This document shows positions 37,124-47,420 of a stretch of DNA of 64,000 bases, one piece after another. The stretch's first letter is position 1, and the number at the start of each line of letters is the position of its first letter. A program made the position numbers and the translations under genes. The stretch lies in assembly GCA_965215605.1 (NCBI GenBank), contig OZ244070.1:3296001-3360000 (forward strand), in the 5' to 3' direction. The notes under the pieces were generated by a model. It was not told the DNA's origin. It did no database searches and saw only the letters and a list, made by a program, of their open reading frames with translations. Origin of the DNA: an uncultured Candidatus Binatia bacterium (GTDB lineage Bacteria > Desulfobacterota > Binatia > UBA9968 > JAJDTQ01).

Positions 37124-38890
37124 ATGTCGGAAATCAAGAAATCGGAACAGCGCTGGCAGTCGGACGTCATCGTCGACCTCATGAAGCTCTACGATATCCC
37201 CTACGTCGCCCTGAATCCGGGGGCGAGCTACCGGGGACTCCACGACTCCATGGTCAACTACGGCGAGAACGATCCCGAGATGCTCCTGTGCAACCACGAG
37301 AAGATCGCGGTGCAGATCGCCCACGGCTACGCCAAGGCCTCGGGCAAGCCCATGATCGCCATCGTGCACGACGTGGTGGGCCTGCTGCACGCGCCCATGG
37401 GGGTCTACTATGCCTACATCGACCGCTGCCCGGTGTTCATCATCGGCGCCACCGGCCCCATGGACGAGAAGTACCGGCGCCCGTTCATCGACTGGATCCA
37501 CACGGCCTTCGCCCAGGGCGACGCGGTGCGGAACTTCACCAAGTGGGACTATCAGCCCGGCAGCATCCACGGCGTGCCGGACTCCTTCGCCCGGGCTTAC
37601 TCCATCATGATGAGCGAGCCCCAGGGCCCCATCTACATGTGCTACGACTCGGCGCTGCAGGAAACCCCGCTCACCGACGACATAACGGTCCCGCCGGCGT
37701 CCGCGGTCAAGGTGCCGTCGCGCATCGCGCCGGAACAAGCGGTGGTCGCCCAGGCCGCCGAGATGCTGGTGAAGGCCGACAACCCGCTGCTGCTCACCGA
37801 GTACGCCGCGCACATGCCCGTGGGTTTCGAGCCCACGGTGGAGTTGGCCGAAACGGTCGGCGCGTCGGTCTTCGACGTCTGCAAGCGGCTGGGCTTCCCC
37901 AACCGCCATCCCCTCAGCATGAGCTTCAACCCGGACGCCTTCGCGGGCGTGGACCTGGTGATGGCGCTCGACGTGGTGGACTGGACCCGCGGCTCTCACA
38001 AGCTCAACACCCAGACCCGCGAGGTCACGGTGGTGACGGCGCCGGACTGCAAATGGGTGGACGCCGGCTTCGCCGACATCGAGATCAGCAAGTGGGCCAC
38101 CGACTACAACAAGCACAACAACTGGGACCTGCGGGTGATGGGGGATACCTCCATCACCATCCCCGAACTCACCAGGGCGTGCGGCGCTCTCATCGACGGC
38201 GACGCGGCGCTGAAGGAGCGCGTCGCGGAGCGCAAGAAGGCGCTGGCGGACAAGCACGAGCGGCAGTGGCAGAAGTGGCAGCAGCAGGTCGAGAAGGAAA
38301 TGGACCAGCGGCCCATGACCGAGTCCCGGCTGGCGTACGAGGTGTGGCAGGCCATCAAGGACGAGGACTGGGTGCTGACCGCCGGGACCCTGAAGGACTG
38401 GGTGCAGAAGATCTGGGACTTCGACAAGCCCTACCGGCATCCGGGCCGGGAACTGGGCACCGGAACGCAGATCGGCATGTCCATCGGCGTGGCGCTGGCC
38501 CACAAGGGGCAGGGCCGGCTGGTGGTGGACCTGCAGCCCGACGGCGACCTCATGTTCGACCTGGGCGCCTTGTGGATGCCCATCAAGTACGACATCCCCA
38601 TGCTGGTGGTCATGTACAACAACCGCGCCTACTACAACGACTGGGCGCACCAGATCCACATGGCCCACCAGCGCGGCACCGACCCCGACCGGGCCTACAT
38701 CGGCATGGACCTGGAGGCGCCGCCGCCGGACTTCGCCCACATCGCGCGGGGCATGGGCTGGTACGCGGAAGGCCCCATCGAGGACCCCTCGGAGGTGGCG
38801 CCGGCAGTGCGCCGGGCCATCGAGCAGGTCAAGGCCGGCAAGCCGGCCCTGGTGGATCCCATCGTCTGGCGCCGGGACATCAACACTTGA
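37124..38890 (+). CDS. Thiamine diphosphate-dependent enzyme (acetolactate synthase/benzoylformate decarboxylase superfamily), paralog 1
   Basis: NPGASYRGLHDS, catalytic CNHEKIAV.IAHGYA, variant ThDP motif QPDGDLMF...YNNRAY. Confidence 0.9.
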   Translation: MSEIKKSEQRWQSDVIVDLMKLYDIPYVALNPGASYRGLHDSMVNYGENDPEMLLCNHEKIAVQIAHGYAKASGKPMIAIVHDVVGLLHAPMGVYYAYIDRCPVFIIGATGPMDEKYRRPFIDWIHTAFAQGDAVRNFTKWDYQPGSIHGVPDSFARAYSIMMSEPQGPIYMCYDSALQETPLTDDITVPPASAVKVPSRIAPEQAVVAQAAEMLVKADNPLLLTEYAAHMPVGFEPTVELAETVGASVFDVCKRLGFPNRHPLSMSFNPDAFAGVDLVMALDVVDWTRGSHKLNTQTREVTVVTAPDCKWVDAGFADIEISKWATDYNKHNNWDLRVMGDTSITIPELTRACGALIDGDAALKERVAERKKALADKHERQWQKWQQQVEKEMDQRPMTESRLAYEVWQAIKDEDWVLTAGTLKDWVQKIWDFDKPYRHPGRELGTGTQIGMSIGVALAHKGQGRLVVDLQPDGDLMFDLGALWMPIKYDIPMLVVMYNNRAYYNDWAHQIHMAHQRGTDPDRAYIGMDLEAPPPDFAHIARGMGWYAEGPIEDPSEVAPAVRRAIEQVKAGKPALVDPIVWRRDINT

Positions 38891-38909
38891 GCCACGAGAG
38901 GAATCAGGC

Positions 38910-40694
38910 ATGAGCAAGGCGGAGAAGGTCGAGGGAGTCGAGATCAAGAAGTCGGACCGCAAGTGGCAGTCGGACGTCATCGTCGACATGGTCAAGCGCT
39001 ACGGGTTCGAGTACATCGCGCTCAACCCCGGGGCCAGCTACCGGGGCCTTCACGACTCGCTGGTGAACTACGGCGAGAACGACCCGCCGATGATGCTGTG
39101 CAATCACGAGAAGATCGCGGTGCAGATCGCCCACGGCTACGCCCGCGCCAGCGGCAAGCCGATGATCGCCATCGTCCACAACCTGGTGGGGCTGCTGCAC
39201 GCGCCCATGGGCATCTACTACGCCTACCTCGACCGGGCGCCCATCTTCATCATGGGAGCCACCGGCCCCATGGAAGAACCCAAGCGCCGGCCGTTCATCG
39301 ACTGGATCCATTCCGCCAGCGTCCAGGGCGAGGCCATCCGCCACTACGTCAAGTGGGATTCCCAGCCCACCACCATCGACGCCGTGCCCGGCGCCTTCGC
39401 CCGGGCCTATGCGGTGATGATGAGCGGCAAGCAGGGGCCCATCTACATGTGCTACGACGCCGGCCTCCAGGAGGCGGCGCTGGACCACGACGTGGCCATG
39501 CCGCCGGAGGACAACGTGCACGTGCCGGCGCAGGCAATGGCGGATCCCACCGCTTTGGAAAAGGCCGCGGACACCTTGGCCGCCGCCAAACGCCCGGTCA
39601 TCGTGGCGGATTTCGCCGCCCGCCCGCCCCACGGCTGGGACCACGTGGTGGAGCTGGCCGAGACCCTGGGAGCGGCGGTGTGGGACTGCGACTCGCGGCT
39701 CAACTTCCCCAGCGAGCATCCGCTGAACCTGAGCATGGACAGCGAGGGGTGCTACAAGGACGCCGACGTCGTGCTGACCCTGGACATCGCCGATTTCGAG
39801 AAACCCACCCACGTGCGCGACATCGCCACCCGCACGGTGGTGAGCATGGTGCCGGAGGACGCTACCTGGATCGACATCGGCTACACCGACACGGAGATCA
39901 GCAAGTGGGCCATGACCTACGCCAGGCCGTTCTACGCGCACCAGCGCATGACCGCGGACCCCGTGACCGCGGCGCCGGCGTTGACCAAGCTCCTGAAGGA
40001 GCGCATCGCCGCAACGCCGGGCCGGGCCGGACAGATCGCGAAGAGGACCGAAGAGGTGGGCAAGCGTCACGCCGAGATCCGGGCTGAATGGCTCAAACAG
40101 GCGAAGGAAGACCGCTGGGACGCGGTGCCCATGACCGTGCCGCGGCTGGCGCTGGAGGTGTGGGACGCCATCAAGGACGAGGACTGGGTGCTCACCTCCG
40201 GCACGCTGCACGACTGGGCGCGGCGGCTGTGGAACTTCGACAAGCCCTACCGCCACGGCGGCCGCGAGCTGGGCACCGGCACGCAGATCGGCATTTCCCT
40301 GGGCGTGGCCCTGGCCCACAGGGGGAAGGGACGGCTGGTGGTGGACCTGCAGCCCGACGGCGATCTGATGTTCGACGCCGGAAGCCTGTGGATCGCCGCC
40401 AAGTACCAGATCCCCATGCTTATCGTGATGTATAACAACCGCGCCTACTACAACGACTGGAACCACCAGATCGTCATGGCCCGCAACCGCGGCACCGATC
40501 CGTCGCGCGCCCACATCGGCATGGACCTGTGCGGCCCGGACCCCGACTTCGCCACCCTGGCCCGCTCCATGGGCTGGTACGGCGAGGGCCCCATCGAGGA
40601 CGCCGACGACCTCAGGCCCGCCCTGGACCGCGCCATCGAGCAGGTCAAGCAGGGGCAGCCGGCGCTGGTGGACACCATTACCCAGCGGCGCTGA
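38910..40694 (+). CDS. Thiamine diphosphate-dependent enzyme, paralog 2
   Basis: Same motifs as paralog 1 with long identical peptide blocks; 19-nt gap between the genes. Confidence 0.9.
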   Translation: MSKAEKVEGVEIKKSDRKWQSDVIVDMVKRYGFEYIALNPGASYRGLHDSLVNYGENDPPMMLCNHEKIAVQIAHGYARASGKPMIAIVHNLVGLLHAPMGIYYAYLDRAPIFIMGATGPMEEPKRRPFIDWIHSASVQGEAIRHYVKWDSQPTTIDAVPGAFARAYAVMMSGKQGPIYMCYDAGLQEAALDHDVAMPPEDNVHVPAQAMADPTALEKAADTLAAAKRPVIVADFAARPPHGWDHVVELAETLGAAVWDCDSRLNFPSEHPLNLSMDSEGCYKDADVVLTLDIADFEKPTHVRDIATRTVVSMVPEDATWIDIGYTDTEISKWAMTYARPFYAHQRMTADPVTAAPALTKLLKERIAATPGRAGQIAKRTEEVGKRHAEIRAEWLKQAKEDRWDAVPMTVPRLALEVWDAIKDEDWVLTSGTLHDWARRLWNFDKPYRHGGRELGTGTQIGISLGVALAHRGKGRLVVDLQPDGDLMFDAGSLWIAAKYQIPMLIVMYNNRAYYNDWNHQIVMARNRGTDPSRAHIGMDLCGPDPDFATLARSMGWYGEGPIEDADDLRPALDRAIEQVKQGQPALVDTITQRR

Positions 40695-40754
40695 GCGGGT
40701 CGGAGTTTCGCCGTTATCGCCCTCTCCGTGCGGCCTGCACTCCCGGCGCCTGGA

Positions 40755-41132
40755 ATGCCGTACGAATACTACGACATAAGAGGCTACGAGCGGCTCATCG
40801 TCCGCATCACCCTGGGCCTCGACGCCGGCACCGCCACCGACGTGGAACGCTACGGCGCCGCCTCCGTCCTGTGGAGCCTCTACAACCGTCTTCGGGAAGA
40901 CCAGCGGGAGGTGTTCCTGGTCGGGCTGGGCAACGCGCTGGAGAAGAACGCCAGCCGCAAGGCGCTGTCCCAGATGGTGCTGTTCGCCTCCAACCCGGTG
41001 CTGGACGTGGACCACAGCATCGACATCCTGGGGGACTGGTTCGTCAAGAACAAGAAGGCCGACCCGGGCCTGTACGAGGCGCTGGACGCCTACTGGCGGC
41101 GGCGCTTCAGCCGCGGATTCGACGAGGAGTAG
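40755..41132 (+). CDS. Hypothetical protein (125 aa)
   Basis: Start re-called at MPYEYY; host-like codon usage; co-oriented with the ThDP pair; no family recognised. Confidence 0.65.
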   Translation: MPYEYYDIRGYERLIVRITLGLDAGTATDVERYGAASVLWSLYNRLREDQREVFLVGLGNALEKNASRKALSQMVLFASNPVLDVDHSIDILGDWFVKNKKADPGLYEALDAYWRRRFSRGFDEE

Positions 41133-41162
41133 GGCGGCGGGGGTGAGCCCGTTGCCGGACCG

Positions 41163-41984
41163 CTATTCGTCGAAGAACGCCAGGGTGCGGATCTCGATGC
41201 TCTCCCGCGGCGGCGCATCCTCGGAAGTGTGGGGATGCTCGAAGGCGGAATGCGCGCTGAAGCGCGCCCGCCCGTCCGTCTTCGAATCGTAGCACTTGAA
41301 GACGATGGCCTCGTCCGGCTGCATGTCGGGAAAATAGTAGAGCCGGTGATCCGGGCTGTAGGTGAGGTGGTAGGTCTCGCCGAGCCGATCGGGATGAGGC
41401 CGCACGGTTGGGATGAGGTCCTCGGTGGCGATGCTCTGGGCGTCGCACATGGCCAGGGGGTCCCGCAGCACCGGGTCCAGCATGCCGCGCCACACCTGGA
41501 CCACCGCGAAACGCTTCTTGAGCAGCTCGCCGGCCTCGTCGGGCAGCAAGTCGCGCACCCGCTCCGGCCCGGACCATTCGGTGTAGTCGTTGTGCACGTT
41601 CTGGACCGGCCCCTTGGCGCCTTTCTCCTCGTAGCCGGAGCGCAGGGTGTGGTCGAAGACCAGCACCCGGCAGGCGCCGGTGTTTTCCTTGATCAGCGCC
41701 TCCATCTCGGGATAGTAGACCGCCCGGACCTCGTCCTCGTCGAAGAAGTCGGTCATCTTCGTGGGCTGGGGCCGCAGGGCGAAACCGTGGTGCTCGATGG
41801 AGAGCTCCGGGTGTTGGCGTCCGTTCCGGACCAGGGCCTGGTGGGTCTCGTACGTCCGGTCCTTGTGCGGGTAGCCGAGGCTGGGCTTGTCGAACGTGGT
41901 GACGGGCCGGTGGCCCTTGTGGACCATGTAGTTGAAGCTCGCTTTGACGGCGTCGTCGAGAGTTTCCGCTGTGGCTGTGGCCAT
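41163..41984 (-). CDS. CmcJ/NvfI/AsaB-family oxidoreductase
   Basis: Start MATATAET with AAGGAG RBS; motifs VFDHTLR, VHNDYT, QVWR, PLAMCD, HSAF.HP, PRESIEIR. Confidence 0.85.
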   Translation of the reverse strand: MATATAETLDDAVKASFNYMVHKGHRPVTTFDKPSLGYPHKDRTYETHQALVRNGRQHPELSIEHHGFALRPQPTKMTDFFDEDEVRAVYYPEMEALIKENTGACRVLVFDHTLRSGYEEKGAKGPVQNVHNDYTEWSGPERVRDLLPDEAGELLKKRFAVVQVWRGMLDPVLRDPLAMCDAQSIATEDLIPTVRPHPDRLGETYHLTYSPDHRLYYFPDMQPDEAIVFKCYDSKTDGRARFSAHSAFEHPHTSEDAPPRESIEIRTLAFFDE

Positions 41985-42041
41985 GGTGATCTCCTTCGGG
42001 ACCACGGTCCCCTTGTACTCTGAGTGTGAAAAACGTCTTGT

Positions 42042-43004
42042 CTAGCCCGCCAGCGCCCCCTGTTCCGCCCACGTGCGCTGCACCTCGCGGCTGGTGCTGA
42101 TGAGCGCGAAGTGGGTGGCCATGTTCTTGAGCGAGTAGCGCTGCAGGTCGGCGTCGTAGGCCGCCACGCAGTCTTCCAGCACCACGGTGTAGTAGCCCCG
42201 TGCGAAGGCGTCCCGCACCGTGGCCTCGACGCATCCGTTGGTGGCGGCGCCGGTGAACAGCAACGTCTTGATGCCCAGGCGTCCCAGGGTGGCGTCCATC
42301 CTGGGGTTGGTAAAGCCGCTGTGATGCCACTTCTTGATCCGGACGTCCTCCGGAGCGGGCGCGACGAAGTCGCAGACGTCCCATCCCGGGGTTCCCGGCA
42401 CCGTGTACTTGGCGTTGGCCAGCCCCACCCGGGCGCGCCGGGCCAGGATCGGGCCGTTGTCGTGCTCGTTGTCGTTGGAGGTCTGGGTGTAGATCACCGG
42501 CACCCCCGCGGCCCGGGCCGCTTCCACCATCTCTTTCAGGGGCTCGCGCATGGCCTCCACGAAGCTCAGGTCTCCCTTCATGCGCGCGCCGCCGGGGGCG
42601 CAGAAGTCGTTCTGCACGTCGATGACCACCAGGGCCGTGTGCTGCGTCCGCACCGTGTCCCCAAGCTCCGTCCACACCTCTCGCACCTGGGGCTCCCACA
42701 TCTCCTCCTCGGGGTCGAACTCGTAGTCGGCGATCTCCCGGCTTTGAAAGATCGGCCGCCCGACCTCCTGGGCCACCTGCCGGTGCACCGGGTGGTCCAC
42801 GTAGCGCTGGAGGGCCTCCGCGTCCTCGCAGATGGCCACCATGGCGTAGTCGTAGTCGCCGTCGCCGCGCAGGTTCGCTCCCATGGACCAGCTCAGCAGG
42901 TCCGGGATGGACTCCTTCATGGAGTTGTAGCCCTCGAGCATCCTGTCTATCTGTTCGGGAGATGCGTCCGGCTTGAGCTTGACCATGACGACGTGCTTGA
43001 TCAT
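42042..43004 (-). CDS. Dabb (stress-responsive A/B barrel) + isochorismatase-family cysteine hydrolase fusion
   Basis: N-terminus MIKHVVMVKLK...IPDL...G.N...Y.DHPVH...DY (Dabb). C-terminus VIDVQNDF, KKWHHSGF, ATNGCVEATVRDA (D-K-C triad, RutB-like). GGAGG RBS. Confidence 0.88.
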   Translation of the reverse strand: MIKHVVMVKLKPDASPEQIDRMLEGYNSMKESIPDLLSWSMGANLRGDGDYDYAMVAICEDAEALQRYVDHPVHRQVAQEVGRPIFQSREIADYEFDPEEEMWEPQVREVWTELGDTVRTQHTALVVIDVQNDFCAPGGARMKGDLSFVEAMREPLKEMVEAARAAGVPVIYTQTSNDNEHDNGPILARRARVGLANAKYTVPGTPGWDVCDFVAPAPEDVRIKKWHHSGFTNPRMDATLGRLGIKTLLFTGAATNGCVEATVRDAFARGYYTVVLEDCVAAYDADLQRYSLKNMATHFALISTSREVQRTWAEQGALAG

Positions 43005-43063
43005 CGCAAACCTCCAGGAGGGTTCTGGTCCAGGGTTGCCGAGTTCCACGGCGGTCAATTCGG

Positions 43064-43093
43064 AGAATATCCGATGATGCCGGCGCAAGTCAA
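43064..43093 (-). promoter_or_regulatory. sigma70-type promoter for the Dabb-isochorismatase gene
   Basis: TTGACT-18 nt-TATTCT on the minus strand, 60 nt upstream of the ATG. Confidence 0.55.
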
Positions 43094-43136
43094 TTTCCGG
43101 GAGGGTGCGAGTCCATTGATGCAGAAGGGCGTTTCC

Positions 43137-43154
43137 CGGCCGCGACCGCGGCCG
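43137..43154 (-). promoter_or_regulatory. Putative SECIS hairpin for Sec72 (in the 3' UTR)
   Basis: CGGCCGC-GGTC-GCGGCCG, a perfect 7-bp stem with a GGUC loop, starting 9 nt 3' of the second UGA. Confidence 0.7.
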
Positions 43155-43379
43155 CTACACCGCTCAGCTTCCCCCGAAGCCGACGCTGACCCGGCCGTCC
43201 TCCACAATCACCGGAATGTCGCGGCTGCCGTGGTTCAGGTCCATCATGCGCCGGAGGCCTTCCTCGTCCTCCAGCACGTTGACGTAGTCGACGGGAATAT
43301 TACGGTCCGAGTAGTCCCGACGGGCACTCGCGGTGTAGTCTCAAAGGTCGTGTCCGAAGATCGACACCTTGTCAGGCAT
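43155..43379 (-). CDS. UXX-star family glutaredoxin-like selenoprotein with two selenocysteines (74 aa)
   Basis: Manual translation: MPDKVSIFGHDLUDYTASARRDYSDRNIPVDYVNVLEDEEGLRRMMDLNHGSRDIPVIVEDGRVSVGFGGSUAV*. TGA at codon 13 (43341-43343) and codon 72 (43164-43166), TAG stop, GGAGAGGA RBS, Grx-like IPVIV..G...VGFG. Absent from the ORF track. Confidence 0.9.
43308..43330 (-). promoter_or_regulatory. Putative SECIS hairpin for Sec13
   Basis: CGAGT-G-CCC-GTC-GGG-ACT-ACTCG, starting 10 nt 3' of the first UGA. Confidence 0.65.
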
Positions 43380-43546
43380 GTCTTGTCCTCTCCATTGTGA
43401 TTCCAATCCTCAGTGAAAGCTGTACCGTCAAACGCGGGTCATGGCAATGGTCGAAAATACGGATGCGGGGGTTTCTTGCGCCGGAACTTGTGGTATGAAG
43501 CGGGCTGAACTACTGTCCTGTGCCATCGGTCAGGCGAAGGGAACCC

Positions 43547-44332
43547 ATGTTTGAACGTGTCAAGGAGTTCGGCACCATCACCTTCAGTCTCGTGCTGTTC
43601 ACGGTGCTGTGGGAGCTGTCGGTGTGGCTGTTCTCCGTATCCGAGTTCCTGCTGCCCGCGCCGTCGGTGGTGGCCCTGACCATCCACGAAAAGTTCCTTC
43701 CCCTCATGCAGAACTGCCTCGTGACCTTCCGGGAAACCATCTACGGGTTTCTCATGGGGCTCGTGCTGGGGGTGATTTCGGCCGTCATGATCGTCTACTC
43801 CCGGTTGCTTCAGAATCTTCTCTACCCGCTGATCCTCGTGGCCCAGATCGTTCCCAAGGTGGCCATCGCGCCGCTGCTGCTGATCTGGGTGGGTTACGGC
43901 GAGATGTCCAAGGTGCTCATCGCGTTCCTGGTCTCGTGGTTCCCCATCATCGTCACCACGGTCCAGGGCATGCGCATGGTGCAGCCCGAGATGCTGGACC
44001 TCGTCAAGTCGCTCCAGGCCTCGAACTGGCAGATCTTCACCAAGGTCCGGCTGCCGAACGCGTTGCCGCACTTCTTCGGCGGCCTCAAGATCGCCATCAC
44101 GCTGGCGGTCATCGGCGCCATCATCGGCGAGTTCGTGGGTGGCAACACCGGTCTCGGTTACCTGGTCATGGTCGCCAACTACGAGGTCAATACGCCGTTC
44201 ATGTTCGCGGCCCTCGTCGTGCTGTCGGCCCTGGGCCTGGTCCTTTACGGCGTTCTGGTGCTGCTGGAGATCTGGCTGATCCCGTGGAGCATCGGCGAGG
44301 ACGAGCAGGAGATGACGGGCTTCGGCATGTAG
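43547..44332 (+). CDS. ABC transporter permease, NitT/TauT (SsuC-like) family
   Basis: LLPAPS, QIVPKVAIAPL, EAA-like loop, RLPNALPHFFGGLK, IIGEFVG. Confidence 0.93.
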   Translation: MFERVKEFGTITFSLVLFTVLWELSVWLFSVSEFLLPAPSVVALTIHEKFLPLMQNCLVTFRETIYGFLMGLVLGVISAVMIVYSRLLQNLLYPLILVAQIVPKVAIAPLLLIWVGYGEMSKVLIAFLVSWFPIIVTTVQGMRMVQPEMLDLVKSLQASNWQIFTKVRLPNALPHFFGGLKIAITLAVIGAIIGEFVGGNTGLGYLVMVANYEVNTPFMFAALVVLSALGLVLYGVLVLLEIWLIPWSIGEDEQEMTGFGM

Positions 44333-44398
44333 GCCGGCTGCGGGCGGACGGGGGGCATCCAGCCAGATTGCGGCGTATCGAGTTTGGAACCGAAATCG

Positions 44399-45172
44399 AT
44401 GACGGAAACCGGGAAAGCCATCGAGGTCAGGAACCTCACCAAGGTGTATCCTTCCAAGGATGCCCCCGTCGTCGCGTTGGAGGACGCCTCGTTCGAGGTC
44501 TACGAGCAGGAGTTCATATCCCTGGTCGGTCACAGCGGCTGCGGCAAGACCACCATCATGAAGATCATCGCGGGCCTGCTCGACAAGACCCGCGGCGAGG
44601 TGCTGGTGAACGGCGCCCCGGTGACCGGGCCCAAGTCGAGCACCGGCATCGTGTTCCAGACCCCGGTGCTGTTCCAGTGGCGCACGGTCATCGACAATGT
44701 CCTGTTGCCGGTGGAGATACTGGGCCTCTCCAGGGAGGAATACTATCCCAAGGCCCTGGGGTTGCTGGAGCTGACCGGTCTCACGGAGTTCAAGGACAAG
44801 TACCCGCGGGAGCTGTCCGGCGGCATGCAGCAGCGCGCGTCCATCAGCCGGGCGCTGGTGCACGACCCCTCGCTGCTGTTGCTGGACGAGCCCTTCGGCG
44901 CCCTGGACGCCATGACCCGGGGCGAGATGAACATGGAGCTTCAGCGTATCTGGAGCGAAAAGAAAAAGACCAGCCTGCTGATCACCCACAGCATCCCGGA
45001 AGCGGTTTTCCTGGCGGACCGGGTCATGGTGATGACGCCCCGGCCGGGCCGCATCACCGACATCATCGACATCGGACTGCCGCGGCCCCGGACCCCGGAG
45101 ATGCGGCTGTCGGCGGAGTTCACCGAATGTGTGAGGGAGGTGGGGAAGACCATCGGGCTGCAGTATCTGTAA
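44399..45172 (+). CDS. ABC transporter ATP-binding protein, NitT/TauT family
   Basis: GHSGCGKTT, LSGGMQQR, LLLDEPFGALDAMTR, ITHSIPEA. Confidence 0.95.
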   Translation: MTETGKAIEVRNLTKVYPSKDAPVVALEDASFEVYEQEFISLVGHSGCGKTTIMKIIAGLLDKTRGEVLVNGAPVTGPKSSTGIVFQTPVLFQWRTVIDNVLLPVEILGLSREEYYPKALGLLELTGLTEFKDKYPRELSGGMQQRASISRALVHDPSLLLLDEPFGALDAMTRGEMNMELQRIWSEKKKTSLLITHSIPEAVFLADRVMVMTPRPGRITDIIDIGLPRPRTPEMRLSAEFTECVREVGKTIGLQYL

Positions 45173-45212
45173 TGAGGTCGCAATAGAAACTCTAACTCGG
45201 GAGGTACACGAA

Positions 45213-46217
45213 ATGAGACGCATAACCATCGCCCTTGCGATTTTCCTGGTCTGCCTGTTCGTCGCCGGCAGCGCATCGGCCGCGGACAAGGTCAAGTTCG
45301 CGCTGGACTGGATCCCCTACGGCAAGCACGCCATGTTCTACGTGAACATCGACAAGGGGTTCTGGAAGGAAGCGGGCCTCGACGTGCAGATGACCCGGGG
45401 CTTCGGCTCCGGCGACACCGTGAAGCGCATCGCCTCGGGCACCGACGACTTCGGCTTCGCGTCGGTGGGTAACATGATCGCGGCCAGGTCGCGAGGCGCC
45501 GAGCTCAAGATGGTCGGCATGATCCACGACAAGACCCTGGAGACCGTGGCCACGCTGGTGGGGAACAAGATCGCCAAGCCGTCCGACCTCGAGGGGAAGA
45601 AGATCGGCTCGCCCGAGGCCAATGCCTCGCGGGTCATCTTTCCGGCCTTCGCCAACATCAACAAGTTCGACAACAAGAAGGTCACGTGGGTCAACATGAC
45701 GGTGCCGGCCACCACGCCGAGTCTCCTGGCCGGACGCGTGGACGCCATCCTGATCTTCTACACAGAGAAGCCGACGGTGGACGCGGCCTCCAAGAAGGTC
45801 GGCAAAACGCCGCTGTACATGCTCTACGCCGACCACGGCATGGCCACGTACGGCAACGGGCTGCTGGTGTCCGAGAAGACCCTCAAGAACAAGCCGGACC
45901 TGGTGAAACGCTTCCTGGCGGCCACCTACAAGGGCATCGCCTGGTCGGTGGAGAACCCGCAGGAGGCCGTGGACATCTTCATCAAGCACAACCCGGCCAT
46001 CAGCCCGGACCTGGCGCGGAAGCACTTCGACATCGCGGTGGACTCGCTTCTGTCCGCCAATGCCTTGAAGGAAGGCATCGGCCACATGACCCGGGATCGC
46101 ATGGTGTTCACCAACGATCTCATCACCAAGCACATGAAGCTTCCGAAGAAGACGGCGGTGGAGGAGGTCTACACCAACGAGTTCCTGCCGAAGCTCTTCC
46201 CGAAGCGCGCCAAGTAG
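45213..46217 (+). CDS. ABC substrate-binding protein, NMT1/THI5-like
   Basis: Signal peptide ASA|ADKV, LDWIP..H..FY...KGFWKEAGLDV, DLEGKKIG. Confidence 0.9.
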   Translation: MRRITIALAIFLVCLFVAGSASAADKVKFALDWIPYGKHAMFYVNIDKGFWKEAGLDVQMTRGFGSGDTVKRIASGTDDFGFASVGNMIAARSRGAELKMVGMIHDKTLETVATLVGNKIAKPSDLEGKKIGSPEANASRVIFPAFANINKFDNKKVTWVNMTVPATTPSLLAGRVDAILIFYTEKPTVDAASKKVGKTPLYMLYADHGMATYGNGLLVSEKTLKNKPDLVKRFLAATYKGIAWSVENPQEAVDIFIKHNPAISPDLARKHFDIAVDSLLSANALKEGIGHMTRDRMVFTNDLITKHMKLPKKTAVEEVYTNEFLPKLFPKRAK

Positions 46218-46267
46218 TTTCCAGCCAACCCGGCTCTGCGGGCCGGGGGTAGTTGATCGACGGGACG

Positions 46268-46300
46268 GGTGGGACTCCGCCGCGGATGCGGAGTCCCACC
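46268..46300. repeat. Perfect 13-bp intergenic inverted repeat
   Basis: GGTGGGACTCCGC-CGCGGAT-GCGGAGTCCCACC between the SBP and oxidase genes. Confidence 0.65.
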
Positions 46301-46337
46301 GTCGCGTCTTTACGCCGTCCGTGGGAAGGAAATCGAA

Positions 46338-47420
46338 ATGAGTGAGCAATTCGTCAGCAATCAGGAGATTATCGTGGAGGCGCGGCGCAACCTGCCCCAG
46401 CCCGTGTGGGATTACCTGAGCGGCGGCAGCGAGTCGGAGACCACCATGCGCCGCAACCGGCTGGCCCTGGACTCGCTGGCCCTTCGTCCGCGGGTGCTGG
46501 TGGACGTCTCCGAGGTGGATACTTCCACCACCGTGCTCGGCCACAAGCTGCGCATCCCCGTCATGCTGGCCCCCATCGGATCGCTTCAGCAGATCACCCC
46601 GGAGGGCGCCGTGGCCTCGGCCAAGGCCGCCAACGAGTTCGGCACCGTCAACTTCGTCAGCTCCGTCACCCAGCCCACCCTCGAAGAAACGGCGGCGGCC
46701 ACCCCCTCGGACAAGATATTTCAGCTCTACATCCGCGGCGGCCTGGACTGGGTCGAGGAGATCCTGGGACGGGTCAAGCAGTCGGGCTACAAGGCTCTGT
46801 GCCTCACCGTGGACTCCGCCCACTACAGCAACCGGGAGCGGCAGTTGATGAACCGTTGGCTGCCCCCCAGCAAGCGGCGGGAGGCCGCCAACCAGGACCG
46901 GCTGTGGCAGGCCAAGCTTACCTGGGAGACCATGGACGCCATCAAGGAGATCGGCGGGATGCCGTTCCTCCTCAAGGGCGTGGCCACCGCCGAGGACGCA
47001 ACCATCGCCCTGGAACACGGCGTGGACGTCATCTACATCTCCAACCACGGCGGCCGCCAGCTCGACCACGGGCAGGGGACCATGGACATGCTCCCGGAAG
47101 TCGTGGAAGCCGTGGGCGGCAAGGCCGAGATCATCATCGACGGCGGTTTCCTGAGAGGTACCGACGTGCTGAAGGCGGTGGCCTTGGGCGCCAAGGCCGT
47201 GACCATCGGCAAGCTTCAGGGCTGGGCCCTGGGCGCAGGGGGTTACGAGGGCCTCGTGCGCGCCCTGCAGCTCCTGGAAAACGAGATCGTCATCGCCATG
47301 GGCCTGCTCGGCGTCACCCGCATCGACCAGATCACTCCGGCCCACGTGTGCAAGGCTCAGGCTGCCGCCATGCCGCACGAGATGAGCACCTTCGTCAACC
47401 TGCCGGAGCGGCTGCGGTAG
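46338..47420 (+). CDS. FMN-dependent alpha-hydroxy acid oxidase/dehydrogenase (LldD/MdlB/glycolate oxidase family)
   Basis: Start MSEQF; WDYLSGG, LRPRVL.DVS, FQLY, LTVD, LKGV, SNHGGRQLD, GTDVLKAVALGA. Confidence 0.93.
   Translation: MSEQFVSNQEIIVEARRNLPQPVWDYLSGGSESETTMRRNRLALDSLALRPRVLVDVSEVDTSTTVLGHKLRIPVMLAPIGSLQQITPEGAVASAKAANEFGTVNFVSSVTQPTLEETAAATPSDKIFQLYIRGGLDWVEEILGRVKQSGYKALCLTVDSAHYSNRERQLMNRWLPPSKRREAANQDRLWQAKLTWETMDAIKEIGGMPFLLKGVATAEDATIALEHGVDVIYISNHGGRQLDHGQGTMDMLPEVVEAVGGKAEIIIDGGFLRGTDVLKAVALGAKAVTIGKLQGWALGAGGYEGLVRALQLLENEIVIAMGLLGVTRIDQITPAHVCKAQAAAMPHEMSTFVNLPERLR

Follow-up and report, generated by a model that had tools for sequence, protein, structure and literature searches.

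The apparently intergenic gap at positions 43137..43400 of the window (the whole stretch of 64,000 nucleotides analyzed here) encloses a minus-strand gene which, when TGA is read as selenocysteine (Sec, U), encodes a protein of 74 residues. This protein is very probably a glutaredoxin-fold member of UXX-star family 1, in which two UGA codons are predicted to be decoded as selenocysteine by SelB and tRNA-Sec. The initial annotation had proposed a double selenoprotein at this site, and that reading is supported by the match to the curated family model, by the Sec machinery of the genome and by the conservation of the sequence past the first TGA. The gene belongs to an already known family, and this particular instance brings no new biology.

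The reading frame, its family and its fold

The coding sequence, 43379..43155, comprises 74 sense codons closed by TAG at 43157..43155, so that with its stop codon the gene occupies 43155..43379 of the minus strand. Its translation, with TGA as U, is MPDKVSIFGHDLUDYTASARRDYSDRNIPVDYVNVLEDEEGLRRMMDLNHGSRDIPVIVEDGRVSVGFGGSUAV. As read from the sequence, the ATG start codon (43379..43377, minus strand) is preceded, 6 nt upstream, by the Shine-Dalgarno-like GGAGAGGA (43386..43393, minus strand). The first predicted Sec codon, a UGA at codon 13 (43341..43343, minus strand), lies within L-U-D-Y-T at the position of the glutaredoxin active-site Cys; the second, a UGA at codon 72 (43164..43166, minus strand), lies within G-G-S-U-A-V-stop, three codons before the stop. 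All of these features had been correctly placed by the initial annotation, which left unsaid that the gene is on the minus strand. The frame is absent from the standard listing of open reading frames in the window, and it is the omission of this two-TGA frame that makes the locus appear intergenic. The case is therefore of some value for annotation: ordinary gene callers leave a two-UGA locus of this kind empty, and a selenoprotein-aware pipeline is needed to recover it.

In a profile search with the translated frame, the protein scored 98 bits (E 2.6e-28) against NF041114.2, the NCBIfam equivalog model named "UXX-star selenoprotein family 1," for which the curated cut-off is 72. The match runs end to end, covering model positions 1-70 of 70 with the C-terminal tail included, which bears out the UXX-star, glutaredoxin-like identity suggested from the sequence at the outset. 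The parent subfamily, NF041212, is likewise matched above its cut-off (78.5 bits against 66), as is the Pfam Glutaredoxin family PF00462 (25.2 bits against 22.9). The UXX-star families were reportedly named by Haft and Tolstoy in mSystems in 2025. In its length of about 74 residues, the U-x-x-T motif near the N-terminus, the Sec three residues from the end and its origin from the same phylum-level group of anaerobes, the protein is a typical member of family 1, from which it differs in nothing of substance except that the residue after the first Sec is Asp, most members having Pro there. It had been suggested that this Asp might tune the redox potential of the active site. However, Asp is found at this position in 18 of 26 same-genus genes and the column is elsewhere occupied by P, H, T, Q, or A, so that the residue represents a genus-level variant only and a special role is not borne out.

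The other members of the broader group, namely, families 2 and 3 (NF041211 and NF047338) and the HUGP/GUXX-star fusion (NF045501), share with the window protein the glutaredoxin-like fold, the C-terminal G-G-x-U-x-x-stop tail and a SECIS located past the stop codon. Nevertheless, the protein falls below the cut-offs of all three models (44.1 against 100, 37.2 against 97, and 50.9 against 325, respectively), and members of these groups mostly contain either CxxC or the tail Sec only, unlike the protein described here. More remote are the classical and NrdH/YruB-type glutaredoxins (PDB 3ic4, 7c10/7c12, and 1h75), with which the window protein shares the beta-alpha-beta-alpha-beta-beta core, the cis-Pro region (I-P-V) and an active site located where helix 1 begins; it differs from them in lacking CxxC and in ending with a Gly-rich Sec tail rather than the last helix, and its score against the YruB model is far below the cut-off (27.7 against 88.55). 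Consistently, an AlphaFold2 model built from an alignment of 25 sequences (mean pLDDT 85.5) consists of a beta-alpha-beta-alpha-beta-beta core with no terminal helix. The least confident part of this model is the GFGGSUAV tail, with a block mean pLDDT of about 71. Among solved structures, the best Foldseek matches are glutaredoxins and NrdH-type redoxins (TMq 0.71-0.77), and the nearest structure by sequence is the glutaredoxin 7c12 (E 8.5e-5).

The family is already curated at NCBI and included in a 2026 review of prokaryotic selenoproteomes (PMC13188914). The available portion of that review catalogues the family as "Distant Grx-like protein 1," credits Zhang and Gladyshev (2008), additionally cites Haft and Gwadz (2023) and Haft and Tolstoy (2025), and suggests that Sec in the UXX-star family may bind metals or unidentified substrates. 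Grx-like selenoproteins are indeed among those reported by Zhang and Gladyshev (PMC2398784), but "distant Grx" as a term is absent from the available portion of that paper; hence, the tie of the family to the 2008 study rests on the citation in the review, as far as the accessible text of both sources goes. A full-text literature search for "UXX-star" returned this review as its sole match, and the main text of the BSepDB paper (PMC13326102) mentions neither UXX nor glutaredoxin.

The selenocysteine machinery that the proposed decoding presupposes is encoded in the same genome. Profile searches identified selA (580.2 bits against a cut-off of 267.9), selB (380.1 against 242.25), and selD (374 against 125), which are clustered at C1:1984272-1988572 (L001, L009, and L010). 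ARAGORN predicted two tRNA-SeC genes, of which the one at C1:259405 is upheld by Rfam RF01852 (73.1 bits against 47), completing the set. At the other locus (C1:2086515-2086611, L097; 97 nt, anticodon tca), the Rfam tRNA-Sec score is below the gathering score, and the gene may have been called falsely or may encode a tRNA of unusual type. The selD gene itself contains one in-frame TGA, indicating that selenophosphate synthetase is probably a selenoprotein too. No match to dsrA was found in the genome, which is 97% complete, so the organism probably does not carry out dissimilatory sulfate reduction, even though this phylum-level group commonly carries the family.

The UGA codons, their conservation, and the two hairpins

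The family is widespread among relatives of the source organism. In a six-frame search, NF041114 was matched above its cut-off in 52 of 61 genomes from the same genus and order, nearly all matches containing one or two in-frame TGAs, whereas the broader NF041212 model yielded 85 matches above its cut-off from 401 sampled genomes of the phylum. We read 80 loci together with the window: 75 match the family pattern and 6 are tail-less glutaredoxins or misfits. In an alignment of 25 sequences, 22 columns are invariant and column identity averages 76%; the conserved columns lie mostly past the first TGA. Conservation downstream of this codon, which the double selenoprotein reading implies, is thus strong.

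The two predicted Sec positions display distinct substitution patterns. The first, at the active site, is occupied by TGA in 47 of the 75 family genes and by a Cys codon in the other 28. By contrast, the tail position is TGA in 73 of the 75 and Cys in none; the other two genes carry Ser and Thr, respectively. Combining both sites, U-x-x-T with the tail Sec occurs in 47 genes, C-x-x-T with the tail Sec in 15, and C-x-x-C with the tail Sec in 11. The two exceptions are distant UXX-star-like genes, one ending in ...APDGG-S-E-F-stop (L066; G098:C7:334647-334856) and the other in ...APHGG-T-A-F-stop (L072; G203:C8:89193-89399). The U/C correspondence that the initial annotation anticipated at both positions therefore holds at the first one but not at the tail, where the classic Sec/Cys test fails because no Cys homolog was found. 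The tail is nonetheless constrained in a different manner. In all 73 genes with a tail TGA, this codon is followed by one variable codon, a codon for Val, Ile, or Phe (GTN/ATN/TTY), and a stop. It is this invariant TGA-NNN-GTN/ATN/TTY-stop layout, along with the conserved 3′ hairpin described below, rather than U/C correspondence, that supports the predicted Sec at the tail. For biochemical work, the pattern provides a simple guide, in that Cys often takes the place of the active-site Sec but never that of the tail Sec.

Both hairpins reported in the initial annotation are present, but they fared differently. Hairpin 2 (43137..43154, minus strand) has a perfect stem of 7 bp, CGGCCGC/GCGGCCG, closed by a GGUC loop at 43147..43144, and it starts 9 nt past the second UGA, at the first base after the stop codon. 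In the window alone, it is not unusual for GC-rich DNA (z −0.81 relative to dinucleotide shuffles; 40 of 200 shuffles were at least as stable). Its conservation is more telling. All 31 close relatives possess the hairpin, in 21 distinct sequences, with loops GGUC (13), GGC (11), GUU (2), and others, and compensatory pair types are found at stem positions 2, 3, 5, and 7. RNAalifold run on MAFFT alignments of the two hairpin regions returned almost no consensus (3 and 2 pairs), because loop length and pairing register vary between genera, and we therefore searched for hairpins in each sequence separately and included controls. With the search restricted to stems of five or more perfect pairs, to loops 14-21 nt from the UGA and to loops with a G within their first two bases, we recovered hairpin 2 at the true site in 71 of the 73 tail-Sec genes. 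The same search in windows shifted by +60, +100, +140, −400, and −460 nt returned 0/73, 2/73, 1/73, 3/72, and 0/70, respectively, and 89 of 1460 shuffled sequences gave a hit. The tail-Sec genes contain 51 distinct hairpin 2 sequences, with a UGA-to-loop distance of 15-21 nt (16 nt in 32 cases).

Judging from this comparative signal, we firmly take hairpin 2 to be a putative SECIS lying wholly within the 3′ UTR, where it would serve the second UGA. An untranslated SECIS placed right after the stop codon functions in Escherichia coli and has been used for the production of recombinant thioredoxin reductase. That the second SECIS is located entirely past the stop codon and shows clear covariation is a further point of guidance for biochemistry. 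An Rfam scan of positions 42900..43600 with E-values up to 10 returned no family, and hence neither hairpin is matched by a curated SECIS model.

The candidate SECIS 1 within the coding sequence (43308..43330, minus strand) is formed by an outer stem of 5 bp, CGAGU/ACUCG, and an inner CCC/GGG stem, with two bulges and a GUC loop at 43321..43319. It begins 10 nt past the first UGA, a geometry that suits a bacterial SECIS, and, with numbering started at the U of UGA, the G and U of its loop occupy positions 23-24, which we take to correspond to the essential loop G and U of the E. coli fdhF element. However, statistical analysis of this hairpin gave results no better than chance. Compared with dinucleotide shuffles, its z is +1.44, with 189 of 200 shuffles folding at least as well, and synonymous recoding revealed no signal in the window (z −1.13). 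Across relatives, 20 distinct TGA forms average a z of −0.25 under synonymous recoding and 10 Cys forms one of −0.74; the similarity of these values indicates that Cys forms retain the hairpin no worse than Sec forms. By the admittedly crude criterion of a perfect stem, only 17 of the 47 TGA forms possess the hairpin, as do 8 of the 28 Cys forms, and RNAalifold found only 2 invariant pairs at this site, the register differing by genus. The Arg codon that provides the "GU" of the loop is CGT in 36 of 46 TGA forms vs 5 of 14 Cys forms, a contrast whose significance (Fisher 0.007) is overstated by the relatedness of the sequences and which, inside the genus only, is 13/18 vs 3/8 (p 0.19). This bias is a weak hint in favor of SECIS 1, which is a plausible candidate that would presumably serve the first UGA.

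Might only the first UGA encode Sec, with the second TGA acting as the stop of a 71-residue protein ending in GGS and the hairpin behind it being a transcript-end or stability element? The complete lack of Cys at the tail position and the unremarkable stability of hairpin 2 for a GC-rich window are compatible with this possibility, but we consider it highly improbable. If the tail TGA were a stop codon, the following six bases and the next stop would be expected to drift, whereas their layout is fixed in 73 of 73 genes. Moreover, the distance between the UGA and the hairpin and the G in the first two loop bases are held in 71 of the 73; there is no T-run 3′ of hairpin 2, and a terminator scan detected 0 terminator-like sites; and the curated NCBI model spans the tail up to its position 70 of 70. 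Even less credible, to the point of being negligible, is that the locus represents a pseudogene in decay or an open frame that arose by chance between genes. The frame is, to be sure, missing from the standard listing of open reading frames. In addition, metatranscriptome contigs from relatives (90-99% alike) cover the neighboring genes for the Dabb/isochorismatase fusion protein and an ABC permease and leave the selenoprotein gene uncovered, which is no proof of absence. The sequencing run that contains the entire stretch may itself have been the source of this DNA. Set against this are the E-value to a curated family, the 52 of 61 related genomes that share its layout, the residues conserved throughout the protein at 76% mean column identity and the ribosome-binding site ahead of the ATG.

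Genomic neighborhood

The selenoprotein gene is surrounded by a probable catabolic island spanning positions 37124-47420. On its 3′ side, on the same strand and separated by a gap of 150 nt, lies a gene for a Dabb/isochorismatase fusion protein (43004..42042, minus strand), which is followed by a gene for a CmcJ/NvfI-family oxidoreductase (42005..41163; 295 bits against 80). The fusion gene is a single frame of 320 codons, the Dabb portion being a stress-responsive alpha/beta barrel domain; the product is similar to RutB and to biuret amidohydrolase but scores under both cut-offs. Upstream and divergently oriented is an SsuABC/TauABC-like ABC transporter consisting of a permease (43547..), an ATPase (44384..), and a binding protein (45213..), beyond which is an FMN-dependent alpha-hydroxy-acid dehydrogenase. 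Two tandem TPP enzymes are encoded at 37124-40694.

The gene order is retained inside the genus, and these associations are restricted to it. Among 11 same-genus loci, the Dabb-isochorismatase gene is present in 8, at 91-97% identity, and the ABC permease and the CmcJ-like gene are each present in 9, whereas none of the three was found in the 19 loci from other genera. In the latter, the neighbors encode NAD-synthetase/CN-hydrolase, metallophosphoesterase, or APH-kinase/nucleotidyltransferase proteins. The possibility of a dedicated partner gene was considered and rejected, given that neighbors are kept only within the genus; since none is conserved beyond it, the genomic context points to no partner. 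A sigma-70-like promoter match (43064..43093, minus strand), with TTGACT and either GATATT or TATTCT at a spacer of 16-18 nt, is located between the selenoprotein and Dabb-isochorismatase genes, suggesting that the two are separate transcription units. The selenoprotein gene is probably transcribed on its own and probably serves a general redox role instead of belonging to the adjoining catabolic cluster.

Possible chemistry of the tail selenocysteine

Sec13 would be the nucleophilic active-site residue, set in a U-x-x-T motif without the resolving Cys that C-x-x-C provides. Where the glutaredoxin fold usually has its last helix, there would be a Gly-rich arm, GFGG-S-U-A-V, bearing Sec72. According to an alignment with the CPYC glutaredoxin of the same genome (...IGGFDD...) and with 7c12, this arm begins at the end of strand 4, a region which in glutaredoxins adjoins the active site and the glutathione groove. 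In the simplest model, Sec13 would attack the substrate and Sec72 would resolve the resulting adduct, yielding a diselenide, so that the protein would alternate between a diselenide state and one with two selenols; where relatives have Cys13, a selenenylsulfide would be the oxidized form. The mammalian thioredoxin reductase offers a parallel, in that its flexible C-terminal Gly-Cys-Sec-Gly arm presumably carries electrons away from a redox center that is buried. By analogy with this GCUG tail, the arm of the window protein might hand electrons to or from the substrate, or, alternatively, the tail might act as an outward-facing relay, as in thioredoxin reductase.

The analogy appears to extend to the Sec near the chain end and to the SECIS outside of the coding sequence, but it concerns mechanism only: thioredoxin reductase is a flavoprotein of unrelated fold, the eukaryotic SECIS is located far downstream in the 3′ UTR, and in the window protein the tail Sec would have its partner within its own small domain, at an active site of the glutaredoxin type. 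A redox relay formed by Sec13 and by Sec72 of the Gly-rich tail, as suggested by the U-x-x-T motif without a resolving Cys, the substitution of the tail for the last helix and the comparison with thioredoxin reductase, seems to us to fall just short of an even chance.

A somewhat different emphasis follows from the substitution patterns. At the N-terminal site, Sec and Cys alternate freely, as do x-x-T and x-x-C, whereas the tail Sec is retained in 73 of 75 genes and is never Cys, suggesting that the tail Sec, and not the glutaredoxin-type active site, might be the indispensable center of the family. We regard this view as tentative and rather unlikely; the point about the tail Sec may already have been made by Haft and Tolstoy (2025). 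If it were true, the tail would perform chemistry beyond the reach of sulfur, for example, by attacking selenium, metalloid, or peroxide substrates, or else it would represent a built-in "seleno-glutathione" filling the glutathione groove, and the glutaredoxin core would merely recycle it. Slightly less probable still, and unlikely in our estimation, is that both Sec residues bind a metal or metalloid, such as Hg, As, or Cu, or carry selenium or sulfur, instead of making up a catalytic redox couple, in which case the protein would be a chaperone or carrier. That Sec at the tail never gives way to Cys would fit chemistry requiring selenium itself, and 11 of the 75 genes combine the tail Sec with a full CxxC site. 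Such a role would, however, sit poorly with a fold and motif characteristic of thiol-disulfide oxidoreductases and with neighborhoods that vary by genus and include no metal-resistance or transport gene as a conserved neighbor.

Apart from the UXX-star gene, two other small proteins of the glutaredoxin fold are encoded in the genome. One is an ordinary CPYC glutaredoxin at C1:3735687 (L013), the same that was used above in the alignment of the arm. The other is a glutaredoxin-like gene of 77 codons at C1:3538650-3538841 (L014:1489-1719), which contains a TGA in a G-U-P-P-C active site and is YruB/NrdH-like, with a score of 76 bits that is under the cut-off. Thus, with the UXX-star, GUPPC, and CPYC genes, a single genome carries three small glutaredoxin-fold genes of differing type.
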